Positions 7,908-21,265 of a DNA stretch of 33,463 bases are shown here, piece after piece. The first letter of the stretch is position 1; every line of letters starts with the position of its first letter. Below the pieces are notes generated by a model, which saw only the letters and a list, made by a program, of their open reading frames with translations, was not told the origin of the DNA and ran no database searches. This stretch comes from a virus (Duplodnaviria; Heunggongvirae; Uroviricota; Caudoviricetes). Both the position numbers and the translations under genes were made by a program. The stretch spans positions 1 to 33,463 of IMG/VR virus record IMGVR_UViG_2548876860_000012, one strand, 5' to 3'.

Positions 7908-9403
7908 TATGCAGACTCCTCTGAATACTGAAGACGGAACTGGTTAACCACGGCAAAGACACGCAACTGGTTAACATAGTCAGGCGGGAACAGCGTGTTC
8001 AGGCGGTTCGGATCGCTGGCATCACGCTCCACAACCAGGTACTGCTTAAACAGTTCGTAGTTTTCCACGATCCCCGCACGCTCAAGCTGACGGTAGGTTG
8101 CCAGCAGTTCCCCTTTGATCACCGCCGGGGTGACAATCGCCTGACCGGGACCAAAGCGGGTACCGTCGCTGGCAAGCTTGTGACGCCCGTACTTACTGGT
8201 AATGACGGATTTCAGTTTGCGCAGTACATACGCACTGGTATGCAGCGTCTCGCTGTCGAGGTAGCTGTTATCCGCAACCCCGTAAGCGTTTTTCCTGTAC
8301 GTGGTGACATCACGCTGAATGCGCAGTACCCCGCTTTCGACATACGCCGTTGCCACGCCATGAGACAGCAGGGTCTGTTGTTCGGTCATCGTGAACCGTT
8401 TCCCCTTCGGCGCAGGCAGCATACCCACCAGCTCACCGGTCTGCGTGGGACGTGCCGGATCGTTGCGGATAAACACCGCTGCGCGGGCGGTACGGCTTGC
8501 CGCCAGCTCGTCGGCAGGCGTCTGGGTCTCTTTTTCGTACCCCGCCAGGGTAATGTGCTGCTGGTTAAACTGGTCACCTGCGGTCACCAGTTCTGACAGC
8601 GTGCCGATCTTTGCCGTATACACATGACCATACAGCTGACGCGCATAGCTCCAGCGACCGCTGGTATCGTTCATCTCGGTCACCAGCGTGTTAACGGAGG
8701 CCGTGTCGTTGAACGGCAGGCCGATATAATCAAACGGCTCATCCGCCATTGCAGCCACCGCGCCGGTGAGAACAGGAGAGCCCGTTCCGGCGGTCCCCGT
8801 CGCCACGGCAATCTGTACGCCCGCAGGCAGCACGTCGCCCCCACCAAAGCCGTAGTAATTGAGGCTGACAGGAATTTCATTCCCGCAAAGCCCCTTATGA
8901 CGCGCGGTCAGTGTGACCACGCCAGCCGAAGATGAAGCTGTAAACGGCAGAGTCGGAACGGCATTGATGGCATCCTGGATACTGCTGGCAATCGTCGTGA
9001 CGTTATCGCCGTTGGTCACCGGAGCCTGCACGCGGGTACGTCCCACATAGACATTCACCGTGCCGCTTTCGGTTGCTTCCCCGGTCACCGTCAGCGTAAC
9101 CGTTGCCGCCGCGCCTGTGGCTTCCGGAACGGCAATCACATACAGCTCACCAAACGGGTCGGTCTGGCGATAAGCCTCGACCATACGCGCCAGCTGACTT
9201 CCCGCACCACAAATCTGGCGTGCATAGTCTGCCGATGGCATCAGCACCAGACTGTTGGCAACAATCTCTGCACCGTTATTGGCATGACCAATCAGCAGCG
9301 ATGCTCCGCTATCCTGTGCAGTATTCGCCGCCTGGTTATCCATTTCCGCATAAAACAGCGGAACCAGCGTATTCGACGGAATGGTGTTAAAGCTTATCGT
9401 CAT
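7907..9403 (-). CDS. Contractile tail sheath protein (Mu gpL-like)
   Basis: 498-aa ORF; size and position typical of myovirus sheath proteins. Confidence 0.8.
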   Translation of the reverse strand: MTISFNTIPSNTLVPLFYAEMDNQAANTAQDSGASLLIGHANNGAEIVANSLVLMPSADYARQICGAGSQLARMVEAYRQTDPFGELYVIAVPEATGAAATVTLTVTGEATESGTVNVYVGRTRVQAPVTNGDNVTTIASSIQDAINAVPTLPFTASSSAGVVTLTARHKGLCGNEIPVSLNYYGFGGGDVLPAGVQIAVATGTAGTGSPVLTGAVAAMADEPFDYIGLPFNDTASVNTLVTEMNDTSGRWSYARQLYGHVYTAKIGTLSELVTAGDQFNQQHITLAGYEKETQTPADELAASRTARAAVFIRNDPARPTQTGELVGMLPAPKGKRFTMTEQQTLLSHGVATAYVESGVLRIQRDVTTYRKNAYGVADNSYLDSETLHTSAYVLRKLKSVITSKYGRHKLASDGTRFGPGQAIVTPAVIKGELLATYRQLERAGIVENYELFKQYLVVERDASDPNRLNTLFPPDYVNQLRVFAVVNQFRLQYSEESA

Positions 9404-16603: not shown

Positions 16604-17103
16604 GATTCGATAATTTTCAGAAACGGGTTAGTGGCTTTCTTCTGCCCCGCCAGGCCAATCAGACGCTGGCGGCTGCTGGGGTCAAGTCCGAGCATTGCAC
16701 CCGTGCTGCTCATCTCGGACTCCTGTTCTTTTTTGGCGGTCAGCTCCGGATTTTTGACCATGCCGCCCATTGCACCGGTGATGGTGTTGCCCTGTATGGC
16801 AATATTTTTCACGGCACGTCGCCAGAACTCATAGGCCACGCACCACCGCTCAAGTACCGCCAGGTCAGTCACGCACAGCAGGCCCTGACCGCAGAGTTCT
16901 TTGGTTGTCAGTTGCCACATGATCGTGGCGAGAGGGAGCTCTTCTTCAGCGAACCACTCCGGTGGCTCAACACCTTTGATGGGCGTAAAAACAGGTTCAT
17001 CTTTGTTCAGGGCTCGCTTGCCGGGGTTTCCGGCCAGCGCCTTGCGCGCCGTTGGCTTGGGGCGACGCCCGGAACGCCCCGCCGTTCCAGCCATATGCGG
17101 CAC
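16600..17103 (-). CDS. Terminase small subunit (P27-like)
   Basis: 167-aa ORF immediately upstream of the large subunit, with a basic N-terminus. Confidence 0.7.
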
Positions 17104-17144
17104 TCCTGGTTAAATTTCATTTTTCGCGGGTATAAAAAAACGAT

Positions 17145-17193
17145 GGGGCGGGCAGTCCGGAAGACGTCAGGTCACAGAGATTTGACCCGCCCC
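17145..17193. other. Candidate cos/packaging-site region
   Basis: 8-bp GC inverted repeat GGGGCGGG (17145-17152) / CCCGCCCC (17186-17193) in the 116-bp gap between HNH and terS, where HK97-like phages place cos. Confidence 0.3.
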
Positions 17194-17219
17194 TCCCCTC
17201 AGACAGTTGAGAATTATTA

Positions 17220-17570
17220 TCACTTTAGCCGTTCACGGGCCGTCTTCGCCTTATGACACGGCCAGCACAGACTCTGCAGATTATTGTCGGCCTCAGTGCC
17301 GCCATGTGCTTTAGGGATGATGTGGTCAACGGTTTGCGCCTCACGCACCACACCGGCACGCAGACATAACTGACACAGGCCCTTGTCACGCTTCAGTACA
17401 CGTTCACGGATAGCATCCCATTTCGAACCGTAGCCGCGCTGATGACGGGATTGTCCTGGCTTGTATTGCTTCCAGCCTTCGCTTTTGTGGCTTTCGCAGT
17501 AGCCTGACGAGTCAGTGGTGGTATGGCGGCAGCCACGAACACGGCAGGCTTTTGGGATTCGTGGGGGCAT
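17220..17570 (-). CDS. HNH endonuclease (packaging-associated)
   Basis: 116-aa ORF with Cys/His motifs (CRVRGCRH...CESH and DHIIPKAHGG...CWPCH) directly upstream of cos/terS. Confidence 0.8.
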   Translation of the reverse strand: MPPRIPKACRVRGCRHTTTDSSGYCESHKSEGWKQYKPGQSRHQRGYGSKWDAIRERVLKRDKGLCQLCLRAGVVREAQTVDHIIPKAHGGTEADNNLQSLCWPCHKAKTARERLK

Positions 17571-17596
17571 AAATATATTCCTGTTCTTTGTCCAGA

Positions 17597-17869
17597 TTAT
17601 TTGCCTGCTGCCAGCAAAGCGTTATGGCGCATCTCGATACTTCGAATCCCCGCTTTGTCAATATTGCATTGTCCCAACGCTGACAACAGACTCACATTCA
17701 ACTCCAGACTGGCACCATACGTCAGCGGATTGGGTATAAACGGTACAGGAGTATCAGAAGTCAGGCTGGCTGGCAGTGGTGCCACCGGAGCGCTCACGTA
17801 AACCGTCCGCGAATTTCCGCAACCTGTCAGCAGCGGCAGCAGGCACAGGACGTGAAGCACAATCATCAT
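17597..17869 (-). CDS. o-spanin (Rz1-like lipoprotein)
   Basis: Start placed at the internal MM of the track ORF (MMIVLHVLCLLPLLTGCGN) with lipobox LLTGC; out-of-frame overlap with the 3' end of Rz. Confidence 0.6.
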   Translation of the reverse strand: MMIVLHVLCLLPLLTGCGNSRTVYVSAPVAPLPASLTSDTPVPFIPNPLTYGASLELNVSLLSALGQCNIDKAGIRSIEMRHNALLAAGK

Positions 17870-18146: not shown

Positions 18147-18606
18147 TTACTTCCCCACCAGCCTCTTTAAATCGGGCAATCAGGTCGCCTATTTTATGTT
18201 CATACTGACCATAACCTGCACCAGGTAACGACGCCCAGATATTGCTGCAACGGTCGATTGCCTGACGAATATCACCGCGATCAATCATCGGTAAAGCGCC
18301 ACGCTCCTTAATCTGCTGCAGCGCAACAGCATCCTGGCTTTTCGGAGAGAAGTCTTTCAGTCCAAGTTGCTTACGGTAAGCATCCCACCAACGGGAAAGA
18401 AGCTGGTAACGTCCGGCTGCTGTTGATTTGAGTTTGGGGTTTAACGTGACAAGTTTGCGAGGGTGATCGGAGTAATCAGTAAACAGTTCGCCGCCAACAA
18501 TAACGTCATAACCGTGGTTACGTGTCGGTTGTCGCCCGTTATCCGTTCCTTCTGACCATGCCACCATATCGAGGAAAGCTTTACGCTGAGGATTAAGATT
18601 TTGCAT
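18130..18606 (-). CDS. R: Endolysin, lambda R-type lytic transglycosylase
   Basis: 158-aa protein nearly identical over most of its length to lambda R as I recall it (QRKAFLDMVAWSEGTDNGRQ...NHGYDVIVGGELFTDYSDHPRKLVTLNPKLKS...GRYQLLSRWWDAYRKQLGLKDF). Confidence 0.9.
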   Translation of the reverse strand: MQNLNPQRKAFLDMVAWSEGTDNGRQPTRNHGYDVIVGGELFTDYSDHPRKLVTLNPKLKSTAAGRYQLLSRWWDAYRKQLGLKDFSPKSQDAVALQQIKERGALPMIDRGDIRQAIDRCSNIWASLPGAGYGQYEHKIGDLIARFKEAGGEVNEAEI

Positions 18607-18910
18607 TTTTCACCCCTGTCAGTCGTTCCCAGAAGTACGTCAGTGCAACCGACCCCATCGCACCGCTAATCCCCGCTGTCGCGAGAATCATGTAAATACT
18701 GAATCCACTTTCGATGCTAATCAGGCCACCAATAACACCGGTGAATCCTGATACCACTATTTGAGCCAGAGCATTTATCCAACTCCACGTTGCTTTACTC
18801 TGCTTCACATCTATCAGGTAGCGGACCAGACCGCCCCAACCTGCAATGATCAGCAAAACGAGCCAGAACGCTCCGGCAAGGCTCTCTTTTTCGTGCATAT
18901 GAATAGCCAA
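18593..18910 (-). CDS. Holin (three TM helices, dual-start motif)
   Basis: 105-aa ORF directly upstream of the endolysin; N-terminus MAIHMHEK has two Met codons like the lambda S105/S107 motif. Confidence 0.65.
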   Translation of the reverse strand: MAIHMHEKESLAGAFWLVLLIIAGWGGLVRYLIDVKQSKATWSWINALAQIVVSGFTGVIGGLISIESGFSIYMILATAGISGAMGSVALTYFWERLTGVKNAKS

Positions 18911-19121
18911 TGTTTCGCCGCCGACAAAAGGCCGGGACGTTAAATGTCAGAATGCAGGCTCACGGGTTAATTTAACGACAAAGCACGGAGTTGATGCTCC
19001 CCGCAAGCCTTGAATAAAAAAGCCAGCATATGGCTGACAACAGAGGGTTAAGCAATGTCAATTCATCAGGCGAAGGCAACAAAAAGCCCCAGCAAATGCC
19101 AGGGCTAGACAGATATGAATA

Positions 19122-19301
19122 CTACTGTTCTTCTATTTTTTTACTGGAAATCAATCCACTGGTCATTTCATAACCGTTTGTGTGGCCACAGTAAGGGCAA
19201 ATAATTGGCTCTTTATCCTTTCCTCCTGGATAGCCTCCACTGTGCTCCCAATAAATAAACTCTTTATTGCAACTTTCATTACTACATCTTGTATTGCTCA
19301 T
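19122..19301 (-). CDS. Small zinc-ribbon protein (59 aa), moron between Q and lysis
   Basis: Not in the ORF track. ATG at 19301 with GGAG 8 nt upstream, stop at 19122-19124. Translation MSNTRCSNESCNKEFIYWEHSGGYPGGKDKEPIICPYCGHTNGYEMTSGLISSKKIEEQ carries two CxxC pairs. AT-rich. Confidence 0.45.
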   Translation of the reverse strand: MSNTRCSNESCNKEFIYWEHSGGYPGGKDKEPIICPYCGHTNGYEMTSGLISSKKIEEQ

Positions 19302-19372
19302 TGCATCACTCCCTCAGTAAGTAAGGAAATAAATACATAGCATAACCAAATCATTATTCGAAATTTGAGCAC

Positions 19373-19397
19373 AAAAAAACCCGCTCGATGGCGGGTT
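19373..19397 (-). terminator. Rho-independent terminator downstream of Q (tR'-like)
   Basis: Minus-strand reads AACCCGC-CATCGA-GCGGG followed by TTTTTTT, about 110 bp after the Q-like stop. Confidence 0.6.
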
Positions 19398-19503
19398 CAA
19401 GAAGATTATCAACGGTAGACACACAAAGCCCATCGTTAGGAGAATCCTAACCATGTTTTTTGAAAAATGCAAGAATCATGTCGCTATCTTCGGCGAAAAT
19501 CAT

Positions 19504-20256
19504 TTATCTTGTCACTCTCCTCAATTGTGTCTCAGCATATGCTTCTTCCTGCCAGCACTTTGTCACCAGTTTATCAATGACATCTGCATATCCTTTGTAC
19601 CACTGATAATCCGTCAGGTCTGGTACCAGCTTCTGGACATGATGCCGCGCCAGTGTGGTTGGTAAACGACTAAACCGGTTTCCATTGCAACGCCCACAAA
19701 TCTTATAAACAGGCGTGCCATGAAGCCGGGTTCTTTTTTCATCCAGGATAATACCTTTACCCTTACATCCTCTGCACGCCGTGCTGACTTCTCCCTTACC
19801 ATGACAATGCTGACATAGTTCCTTCACCCTCTCTGCCTTGATAATGGATTCCCCGCTTCTGGAGTGTTTCACCACTTCGCGCAATACATTATGAAATCCA
19901 GTACCAGCACAATGCTCACAGCGAGCCTTACTTGCCGCAGACCTGGAATAATCAGCAAAGGCAAAATTCACAAGGTAAGGGATGATCTGTAACCGGGTTT
20001 CTTCACTCAATTTGTTCAATGTCGGGTTATCCAGTGCCATCGCGTAATTGAGCAGACCTTCAATCGCAAACTGAGGATCCTGAACACCAACTTTTGCCAG
20101 GAATAAGGCAAAACCCAGTGGTGCTTTCGACTGCACCATCCCCTGCGCAGCCATCACATCTGTAATTGTTAAACCACCAGAGCCTGTCGCCGGTGCGTCA
20201 TCACTCAATTTTGGAGATTTTGGGGAGTAATATTTTGGTAAGGCTTCAAGGTTCAT
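19504..20256 (-). CDS. Putative late antiterminator Q
   Basis: 250-aa ORF with clustered Cys motifs (CEHCAGTG, CQHCHGKG, CRGCKGKG, CGRCNGNR), placed immediately upstream of the terminator and lysis cassette. Confidence 0.5.
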   Translation of the reverse strand: MNLEALPKYYSPKSPKLSDDAPATGSGGLTITDVMAAQGMVQSKAPLGFALFLAKVGVQDPQFAIEGLLNYAMALDNPTLNKLSEETRLQIIPYLVNFAFADYSRSAASKARCEHCAGTGFHNVLREVVKHSRSGESIIKAERVKELCQHCHGKGEVSTACRGCKGKGIILDEKRTRLHGTPVYKICGRCNGNRFSRLPTTLARHHVQKLVPDLTDYQWYKGYADVIDKLVTKCWQEEAYAETQLRRVTR

Positions 20257-20269
20257 GCTCGTTCTCCAC

Positions 20270-21265
20270 TTACGCCAGTACGCCTATTGCCAGCGCATGA
20301 TCGATAAAACGAAATATCAGCTCCAGCTGGGAGCCATACTTCTCTTCAAATGCCACGGTATTCGCATGCAGCTCGTCGTGATGCTTTCTGCACAAAGGCA
20401 ACACAAAGAGGTCATGCGCTTTAGTACCCATTCCACCCTGACCGTGACCTATCAGGTGGTGGGGATCATCAGCAGGCTTACCACAACATGCACACGGCTG
20501 TGTCTTAACCCAGCGCGTGTACTTTTCATTAACCCAGCGGCGACGTTTTGGGCGTAACATAAAAGACTCCGGCGACTCCGGATCCACTTTCAGCGCCAGC
20601 ACCTTTTTCGCTTTATCCTGGATAATGCTGGTGGCAGGAACCGAAGGCACAAGGTCACTCTCCCGGGTGACAGACAGCACAACAGGCCTCGGTAATCTCA
20701 GTGCCTTACGGGCTGCACTTTCCGGTAAGGCATCAGCCAGGTCATTACGAACCAGCCACCAGCACAGTTCCGGCATTGTCACAACGTGGCTATCATCAAA
20801 ACCGAGATCACGGCGCACAACAGATAACACCCAGCTGGCACAGTTATCCGTTGCCATTGATTCCAGCCGTTCCGTGAACTGATCGCGCAACTGGTTATCG
20901 CAGTGCCAGCACAGACGGATTGCGCCCGGCGCGTGCCGCATTGTGGTCATGTTCTCGCTGTGCCAGTCGGAATGAGGCCACTGGCAGCCTTTTTCACGAA
21001 GTAACCAGCTTTCAAGACATTCCACGCCACCAGCACGACGGATCACTGCCTCATTGCGGAACACGGCCCGAACGGCAGGATCATCCGCCAGCGGTTGTGA
21101 TGCCGCCGGAACGGCACCACTGGCGAAAGATGAATAACGCTCCGGCTCAGGCTCCAGCAGGACACGCCCCTGCATAAACAGGGGCATCAGCTCTGAACCT
21201 GGCCTGAACAATACGATCCCCATACGCGGGGCAATTTCAGGGGTTAGTAGTGCTCTCACGGTCAC
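20270..21265 (-). CDS. DUF968-like protein with C-terminal HNH-like Cys/His motif
   Basis: 331-aa ORF; C-terminus CACCGKPADDPHHLIGHG...LCRKHHDELH. Sits in the nin-region position between the antirepressor and Q. Confidence 0.5.
   Translation of the reverse strand: MTVRALLTPEIAPRMGIVLFRPGSELMPLFMQGRVLLEPEPERYSSFASGAVPAASQPLADDPAVRAVFRNEAVIRRAGGVECLESWLLREKGCQWPHSDWHSENMTTMRHAPGAIRLCWHCDNQLRDQFTERLESMATDNCASWVLSVVRRDLGFDDSHVVTMPELCWWLVRNDLADALPESAARKALRLPRPVVLSVTRESDLVPSVPATSIIQDKAKKVLALKVDPESPESFMLRPKRRRWVNEKYTRWVKTQPCACCGKPADDPHHLIGHGQGGMGTKAHDLFVLPLCRKHHDELHANTVAFEEKYGSQLELIFRFIDHALAIGVLA

Follow-up and report, generated by a model that had tools for sequence, protein, structure and literature searches.

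In the late switch of phage lambda (Q, PR', qut and tR'/6S RNA), the -10-like element AACGAT holds sigma70 in a promoter-proximal pause where Q loads. The slot just past tR' carries Shiga toxin and other host-affecting cargo in lambdoid phages, so that any new occupant of this slot is a candidate fitness or conflict factor. Morons of the HK97/HK022 type, in turn, consist of a promoter, a gene and a terminator and are expressed from the prophage. Cargo located immediately past tR' includes stx with the StxS leader RNA (PMC7547250), cspB, cspF, ynfS and ynfU of the K-12 cryptic prophage Qin, and orf47 and orf48 of Shigella phage SfV, and the small Q-controlled counter-defence gene of phi80 (PMC11364771) demonstrates that a design of this kind exists. 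Here we describe the occupant of this slot in an E. coli prophage of the tailed-phage class Caudoviricetes, IMG/VR record IMGVR_UViG_2548876860_000012, which was analysed over its whole stretch of 33,463 nucleotides (nt), hereafter the window. Sequence comparisons support a lambda-type late switch followed by a self-terminated cassette that encodes a conserved zinc-ribbon protein of 59 amino acids (aa). In our judgement, the cassette (19079-19368) is probably a late-expressed, single-gene cargo unit at the hot spot just past tR', whose protein may modulate a conflict system.

The late switch and the limits of the cassette

All phage genes of this region lie on the minus strand, and positions 18911-19503 constitute the complete intergenic interval between Q and a LydA-type holin gene, which is followed by the endolysin and Rz/Rz1 genes. 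The features of the region are as follows.

19504-20256, minus strand: gene for the antiterminator Q of the lambda-Q family, 250 aa, like YdfT/QuuQ of Qin (PF03589, PHROG 127, PDB 7ubm)
19429-19472, minus strand: putative promoter PR' and pause element, with lambda PR' geometry and an identical 9-mer, kept in SfV and K-12 Qin
19373-19398, minus strand: putative intrinsic terminator tR', 8-pair stem and T7
19079-19368, minus strand: cargo cassette of ~290 bp, the segment common neither to SfV/Qin (left) nor to the holin leader (right)
19334-19362, minus strand: candidate weak internal promoter, a motif kept among cassette variants and not called by the promoter scan
19313-19309, minus strand: Shine-Dalgarno sequence GGGAG, 7 nt ahead of the ATG
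19122-19301, minus strand: open reading frame (ORF) of the predicted 59-aa C4 zinc-ribbon miniprotein, with 149 family representatives and cysteines C6, C11, C35 and C38
19079-19106, minus strand: putative intrinsic terminator of the cassette itself, 9-pair stem (6 GC) and T5
19016-19038, minus strand: weak hairpin and T6 of the holin leader, outside the cassette, 6 pairs, -7.9 kcal/mol
18593-18910, minus strand: LydA-like holin of holin superfamily III, first lysis gene (PF16083, E=8e-22; PHROG 785, E=5.5e-40)

The upstream gene, which the original prediction had called Q-like, does encode a Q protein (PF03589, E=1.7e-53; PHROG 127, E=5e-107), with matches to the lambda Q structures 7ubm (E=4e-38) and 4mo1 (E=4e-25). 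Directly after its stop codon, TTGCAT (19472-19467), 17 nt, TAGGAT (19449-19444), 6 nt and AACGATGGG (19437-19429) reproduce the layout of lambda PR' (TTGACT-17-TAAATT-6-AACGATGGG), the 9-mer being identical. A generic sigma-70 scan did not call this promoter because just 7 of the 12 consensus positions match, and the assignment is accordingly based on conserved geometry, not on consensus strength. The hairpin with a T7 tract that had been noticed downstream of Q is present at 19398-19373, with 8 pairs, and the PR'-tR' leader folds at -20.1 kcal/mol. The same promoter, pause element and terminator also follow the Q genes of SfV and Qin (ydfT), where the terminator is conserved with changes restricted to the loop and, in SfV, is annotated as such; for this reason, the hairpin reads by comparison as the tR' of a lambda-type late switch, not as the flank of a moron. 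The likeness to lambda thus extends to the Q family, the promoter layout and the intrinsic terminator that comes next. The differences concern the leader (~65 nt here versus 194 nt in lambda), the spacer with the presumed Q-binding element, which has another sequence, and Q itself, which has 250 aa with an extra CxxCxGxG finger versus 207 aa. This DnaJ-type finger, with CxxCxGxG repeats (PF00684, E=2.4e-07, two stretches), is inserted in a lambda-family protein of the YdfT/QuuQ type, and the Q gene is preceded, as in Qin, by a DUF968/HNH-like gene.

Transcription would start at about 19437, giving in the lysogen a leader RNA of ~65 nt (19437 to about 19373) that, by analogy, would correspond to lambda 6S RNA and to StxS of the Stx phages (PMC7547250). 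Such a leader (19373-19437, minus strand) would be constitutive in lysogens and could work like the small RNA StxS. No Rfam family matches it, nor did any part of the window reach a gathering score in Rfam or contain a tRNA; a sub-threshold match to MicX in the region was dismissed as driven by the terminator hairpins.

The limits of the cassette are set from both sides. Similarity to SfV and Qin, which share the Q end, PR' and tR' of the window and whose cargo is likewise expected to be under Q read-through control, ends just past the T-tract of tR' and GTGC, at window position 19369. Beyond this point, SfV has orf47 and orf48 and Qin has ynfS, cspF, cspB and ynfU, and these genes, like stx, are unrelated to the miniprotein; the proposal that the slot between Q and lysis genes accommodates accessory cargo was well founded. 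At the other end, homology to the holin leader begins at 19078, and the stretch 18850-19078 is ~94% identical to a holin leader shared by more than 1000 E. coli genomes, which accounts for the majority of the 1296 genomes that match in part. This leader is also found in phage PhiR47_2, behind a different Q, with neither an ORF in the gap nor the cassette. What remains, 19079-19368, is the ORF with 66 nt on its 5' side and the 9-pair terminator.

The original prediction had treated the interval as one AT-rich unit flanked by terminators. The base composition is indeed deviant (GC 0.375-0.385, or about 0.38, across 19100-19500 versus 0.47-0.51 in the flanks), and terminator-like sites are abundant in 18500-20300 (9 versus 1.7 +/- 1.3 in shuffles), but the hairpins belong to three separate units, namely tR', the terminator of the cassette and the holin leader. 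Both of the hairpins described as weaker, downstream of the ORF, are present with T-tracts; the one at 19081-19106, however, is the strongest downstream element (-15.3 versus -7.9 kcal/mol), and the one at 19016-19038 is, on the alignments, part of the shared holin leader and not of the cassette. The plus strand of the region contains only short unsupported ORFs; its single promoter-like match and single terminator-like match are no more than chance would give.

The holin gene has two possible starts (18896-18910, minus strand), TTG at 18910 and ATG at 18898 (MAIHM...), resembling the dual-start holin/antiholin of lambda S, and the start choice differs between PGAP (the 101-aa form) and the PhiR47_2 record. 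In the Q-to-lysis slot of K-12 Qin (locus L088, 4806-4976, cspB-essQ), ynfU, which lies on the opposite strand, encodes a putative zinc-binding protein of 56 aa; YnfU was considered as a homologue of the miniprotein and rejected (hhalign probability of 37% over 13 columns).

A conserved zinc-ribbon gene in a mobile cassette

The 59-aa ORF (19122-19301) begins 7 nt after a good Shine-Dalgarno sequence, as had been noted. It is not unannotated, since in the RefSeq copies PGAP annotates it as the hypothetical protein WP_023154804.1. Of the two CxxC pairs initially proposed, the second holds (C35-x2-C38), whereas the first is Cx4C (C6-x4-C11), most family members having CxxC at this site. A word-indexed search recovered just seven clusters; the profile search that had been recommended, covering 1.84 billion representatives, yielded 149 relatives at E<=1e-3, nearly all of 53-90 aa and belonging to no named family. 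The four cysteines are invariant in 49 aligned sequences, within the motif C-x2(4)-C..KxF..(Y/F)PGGKxxE..CP(Y)CG..MTSG. The relatives are mostly from Bacillota, with a few in Bacteroidota, Akkermansia, Bdellovibrionales and cyanobacteria; a GTDB scan confirmed no relative. The AlphaFold2 (AF2) model (predicted local distance difference test, 84.5) is all-beta with five strands, and the miniprotein is predicted to be a C4 zinc ribbon with its two cysteine pairs on two beta-hairpin knuckles.

No family in Pfam, NCBIfam, PHROG or PADLOC claims the miniprotein, the only matches being to generic zinc ribbons and all sub-threshold, and the PADLOC defence models gave 0 families at E<=1 against the window protein. 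A structure search of the AF2 model against PDB and BFVD returned no significant match, and a sequence search of PDB with the family profile gave only C2H2, PHD and rubredoxin noise. Membership in the Lar restriction-alleviation family was also rejected: Pfam Lar is not matched, and phrog_6422 is matched at E=0.002, with 6 of the 49 family members at E<=1e-3. Lar-like proteins resemble the miniprotein in being small phage zinc-ribbon accessory proteins, but the match is weak and probably generic, because several unannotated zinc-ribbon PHROGs are matched equally weakly.

A viral-contig scan and a look-up of close homologues located the cassette in four further settings, with 75-85% protein identity. 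Variants A to D start right after a tR'-type terminator and end with their own terminator. Variant A, that of the window, follows a PF03589 Q, variant B a 192-aa Q of DUF1133/PF06530, and variants C and D follow PF06323 Q proteins of 229 and 183 aa, respectively; variant E (locus L043) has a different upstream context without a recognisable Q. The cassette is therefore found behind all three Q families known to Pfam, in enterobacterial prophages, alongside several holin types. Among the variable coding columns, codon positions are represented as 15/13/53 (53 of 81 in third positions), dN (nonsynonymous divergence) is 0.07-0.16 with synonymous sites saturated, and the coding sequence is better conserved than the 5' untranslated region (UTR) (73-92% versus 46-77%). 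The terminator at 19106-19081 (9-pair stem with 6 GC, T5; z=-2.4) is paired in all 72 cells across 8 variants, with two pairs changed on both sides in a compensatory manner. On these comparisons, the cassette is a mobile unit under selection.

The same data bear on the possibility that there is no gene here, and that the interval holds a chance ORF in a terminator-rich intergenic leader or a cis-regulatory attenuator. The ORF is short and AT-rich, and Rfam Trp_leader matches 19371-19455 (E=0.013, 26.7 bits), but its score is far under the gathering threshold of 41 and comes from the terminator hairpin, for which reason we rejected the attenuator. The 149 relatives with four invariant cysteines and the bias towards third codon positions, with dN far below dS (synonymous divergence), each refute this explanation, and the confident AF2 model also speaks against it; we regard it as extremely improbable. 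Judged by its conservation, the ORF is a real gene of an unnamed family of ~150 clusters, and the zinc-ribbon gene originally proposed can be retained.

The distribution of the cassette is sparse. Among 5426 complete E. coli genomes, 15 have the whole arrangement, one of them inside an e14-site prophage with different structural genes, and the gene is found in 1 of 50,697 phage records (Klebsiella phage Kp4864-1) and in 0 plasmids. With SfV, Qin and PhiR47_2 devoid of the cassette, related phages display a presence/absence pattern.

Several observations accompany the variants. A three-codon upstream frame, ATG-CAA-TGA (19298-19306, minus strand), overlaps the miniprotein start codon (ATGcaATGa) and is probably incidental, because it is present in variants A and B but not in C to E. 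At the variant C and D loci L010 (about 8290-8400), L037 and L044 (3356-3430), tRNA-related elements follow the cassette, namely a tRNA-Thr gene in variant D and, in variant C, a tRNA-like remnant with a GGTTCGAGTCC arm, not called by ARAGORN; the sequence just past the terminator of the variant C cassette resembles that just past lambda tR'. In a degraded Klebsiella-type prophage (L010, 8812-9495), a truncated Rz gene and the gene of a DUF4145 protein come after the cassette; a recent PDB entry for a DUF4145 protein, 9y9c, was a weak match in the PDB search with the family profile. The prophage of strain GF131 (L001, 4971-5976) is otherwise near-identical to the window but carries, between Rz1 and HNH/terminase, two additional hypothetical genes on the opposite strand, which the window (17103-17600) does not contain. 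Their position is that of the moron locus upstream of packaging, reported as the home of Tai-type defence genes (PMC11364771).

Transcription of the cassette

By the lambda model, PR' would fire constitutively, and in the lysogen RNA polymerase would halt at tR', releasing the short leader. Upon induction, Q would load on the sigma70-paused complex at AACGAT and render the polymerase terminator-resistant, so that the miniprotein gene would be transcribed first, before the holin, endolysin and Rz genes. As the terminator of the cassette would be irrelevant to Q-modified polymerase, it most likely stops Q-independent transcription, originating from leakage through tR' or from a weak internal promoter, short of the lysis genes. 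A low level of the protein could thereby be allowed in the lysogen without lysis, and the fact that the terminator has been maintained is the strongest indirect sign of some Q-independent transcription of the gene.

On a rival reading, the cassette would be a classic moron, transcribed from its own promoter in the repressed prophage and useful to the bacterium, be it in superinfection exclusion or in defence, with a terminator guarding against read-through into the holin gene. The original prediction used this label, and the presence/absence pattern, the terminator and the deviant, AT-rich composition agree with it and with the extra genes of HK97/HK022-type morons. It would also account for the retention of a terminator, with compensatory changes, that Q-modified polymerase would ignore, and for the presence of defence islands among the neighbours of the relatives (see below). 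The promoter is the difficulty. The sigma-70 scan called none on the cassette strand. Ahead of the ORF, TTCGAA (19362-19357), 17 nt and TG-c-TATGTA (19342-19334) form a non-canonical promoter-like motif, and the pattern TTCG-17-TGnTA(T/A)GnA is common to the diverged variants A to D, with variant E keeping only the extended -10-like TGnTA part. However, at -7 the candidate -10 has A where T is nearly invariant, the 5' UTR is less conserved than the coding sequence, and leakage through tR' from a constitutive PR' accounts equally well for the terminator. Because no canonical promoter of its own, the defining feature of a moron, was called on this strand, the label is not supported as proposed; the cassette differs from the HK97/HK022 type in having only a candidate promoter and in lying within a Q-controlled transcript, with late expression by default. 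We consider the classic moron somewhat unlikely, with the proviso that it partly overlaps the favoured explanation. As far as can be judged from the DNA, the gene is better described as the first late gene under Q control than as a moron demonstrably expressed in the lysogen.

Relatives in defence islands and beside Fic genes

The relatives of the miniprotein gene reside in defence islands and in accessory regions of mobile elements. The two genes on each side of them were compared at 33 genomic loci (125 proteins). By Pfam, Fic was the most frequent neighbour with 12 proteins, followed by GmrSD with 4; by PADLOC, the neighbours included SoFic/PDC-S04 (12), HEC-06, IetAS, NsnA, MADS and PD-T4-2. 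Individual relatives immediately follow a type II restriction-modification pair in a phage-like element or hsdS-hsdR (type I) on a viral contig, lie just ahead of SIR2-HerA, or adjoin QueC-like and TatD genes (Qat-like), a KAP NTPase, and TIR, FRG and DUF4238 genes. Another is on a Rep3 plasmid contig, and one is divergent from an XRE-type regulator, heading an operon of zinc-ribbon membrane proteins. By guilt by association, a conflict role is most likely for the miniprotein, rather than one in virion assembly or lysis.

A further relative, in a Jeotgalibaca prophage, lies between an acyltransferase gene and the holin gene, three genes before the latter. Together with the position of the window gene as the first of the late operon, directly ahead of the holin, and with the best viral fold match, to an Ogr/Delta-like zinc finger, it would fit a phage-intrinsic late regulator, whose zinc ribbon binds nucleic acid or RNA polymerase and tunes late transcription, holin translation or the timing of lysis. 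The fold match is, however, non-significant (E=0.42), and hardly any phage that shares this Q or these lysis genes has the gene. Its partners comprise three unrelated Q families and several holin types, and most homologues reside in non-phage chromosomal defence islands. Such a regulator seems to us improbable.

The most consistent neighbourhood was found in 12 of the 33 loci, where a 71-aa XRE-like helix-turn-helix (HTH) protein, the zinc-ribbon protein (ZnR) and Fic are encoded in this order with gaps of 14-25 nt, an order maintained between Fic proteins only ~60% identical. The succession of HTH regulator, small protein and toxin-type enzyme in these Bacillota relatives resembles that of tripartite regulator-antitoxin-toxin operons such as paaR2-paaA2-parE2; the sequences are unrelated, however, and in E. 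coli the gene has no such companions. At several loci (L065-L067, L069, L071, L072 and L074, in Thermoanaerobacter, Thermoanaerobacterium, Tepidanaerobacter, Peptococcaceae and other Clostridia) the Fic proteins are 94-98% identical across genera, suggesting recent horizontal spread of one mobile element, and a transposase-like gene is close to the operon in L070. The adjacent Fic proteins are FICD-like, with HPFIDGNGR and their own inhibitory SNA(L/I)EG at residue 40.

Small proteins encoded beside defence-type Fic AMPylases have been described, namely FicA/VbhA and AS1, the latter a 47-aa protein that neutralises the adjacent SoFic-type Fic, EcSofic, which is toxic despite self-inhibition (PMC12249575). 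The zinc-ribbon relatives share this location, although they lie upstream of Fic while AS1 is downstream of its own, and the comparison with AS1 is by description only; EcSofic (9vjc) is only distantly related to the Fic proteins beside the zinc-ribbon genes (E=0.02). FicA/VbhA are helical inhibitors, in contrast to the zinc-ribbon beta fold here. Judged by the company its relatives keep, the miniprotein may be a soluble zinc-ribbon binder with an antitoxin-like or anti-defence role, modulating or neutralising some conflict system, a tentative assignment to which we give well under an even chance. A more specific version, in which the miniprotein is an orphan phage copy of a subunit restraining FICD-like or SoFic-like Fic toxins, acts as the first Q-dependent late anti-defence factor against an abortive-infection toxin and was spread by a terminator-bounded cassette to the tR' hot spot of three Q families, appears unlikely.

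A number of points weigh against the reading of the cassette as late-expressed conflict cargo. The starts and stops of transcription at PR' and the terminators are deduced from sequence. No empty site joining this Q straight to this holin leader was found in the 5426 genomes, so that the cassette may indicate a joint in the phage mosaic and not a simple insertion. Any promiscuous accessory gene would be expected to turn up in defence islands as well, and the orphan copy of E. coli has neither a Fic nor an HTH partner alongside. The inhibitory motif (S/T)xxxE(G/N) is absent from the zinc-ribbon proteins, including the miniprotein, and the Fic partners, self-inhibited by the SNA(L/I)EG helix, have no need of a FicA-type antitoxin; a classical class I Fic antitoxin (FicA/VbhA) was rejected on these grounds.

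As a kind of cassette, the element is ordinary for phage cargo; its protein family has no name, and the link to defence islands is interesting but unproven. What had been an anonymous ORF is now a defined 290-bp cassette with mapped control elements, recurring behind three Q families, and it encodes a member of a small-protein family that no database names and that is linked to defence islands and to the HTH-ZnR-Fic operon. Should the miniprotein be antitoxin-like or anti-defence, it would represent a new class of small proteins in the conflict between phages and their hosts; otherwise, it would be routine cargo of the phage mosaic.

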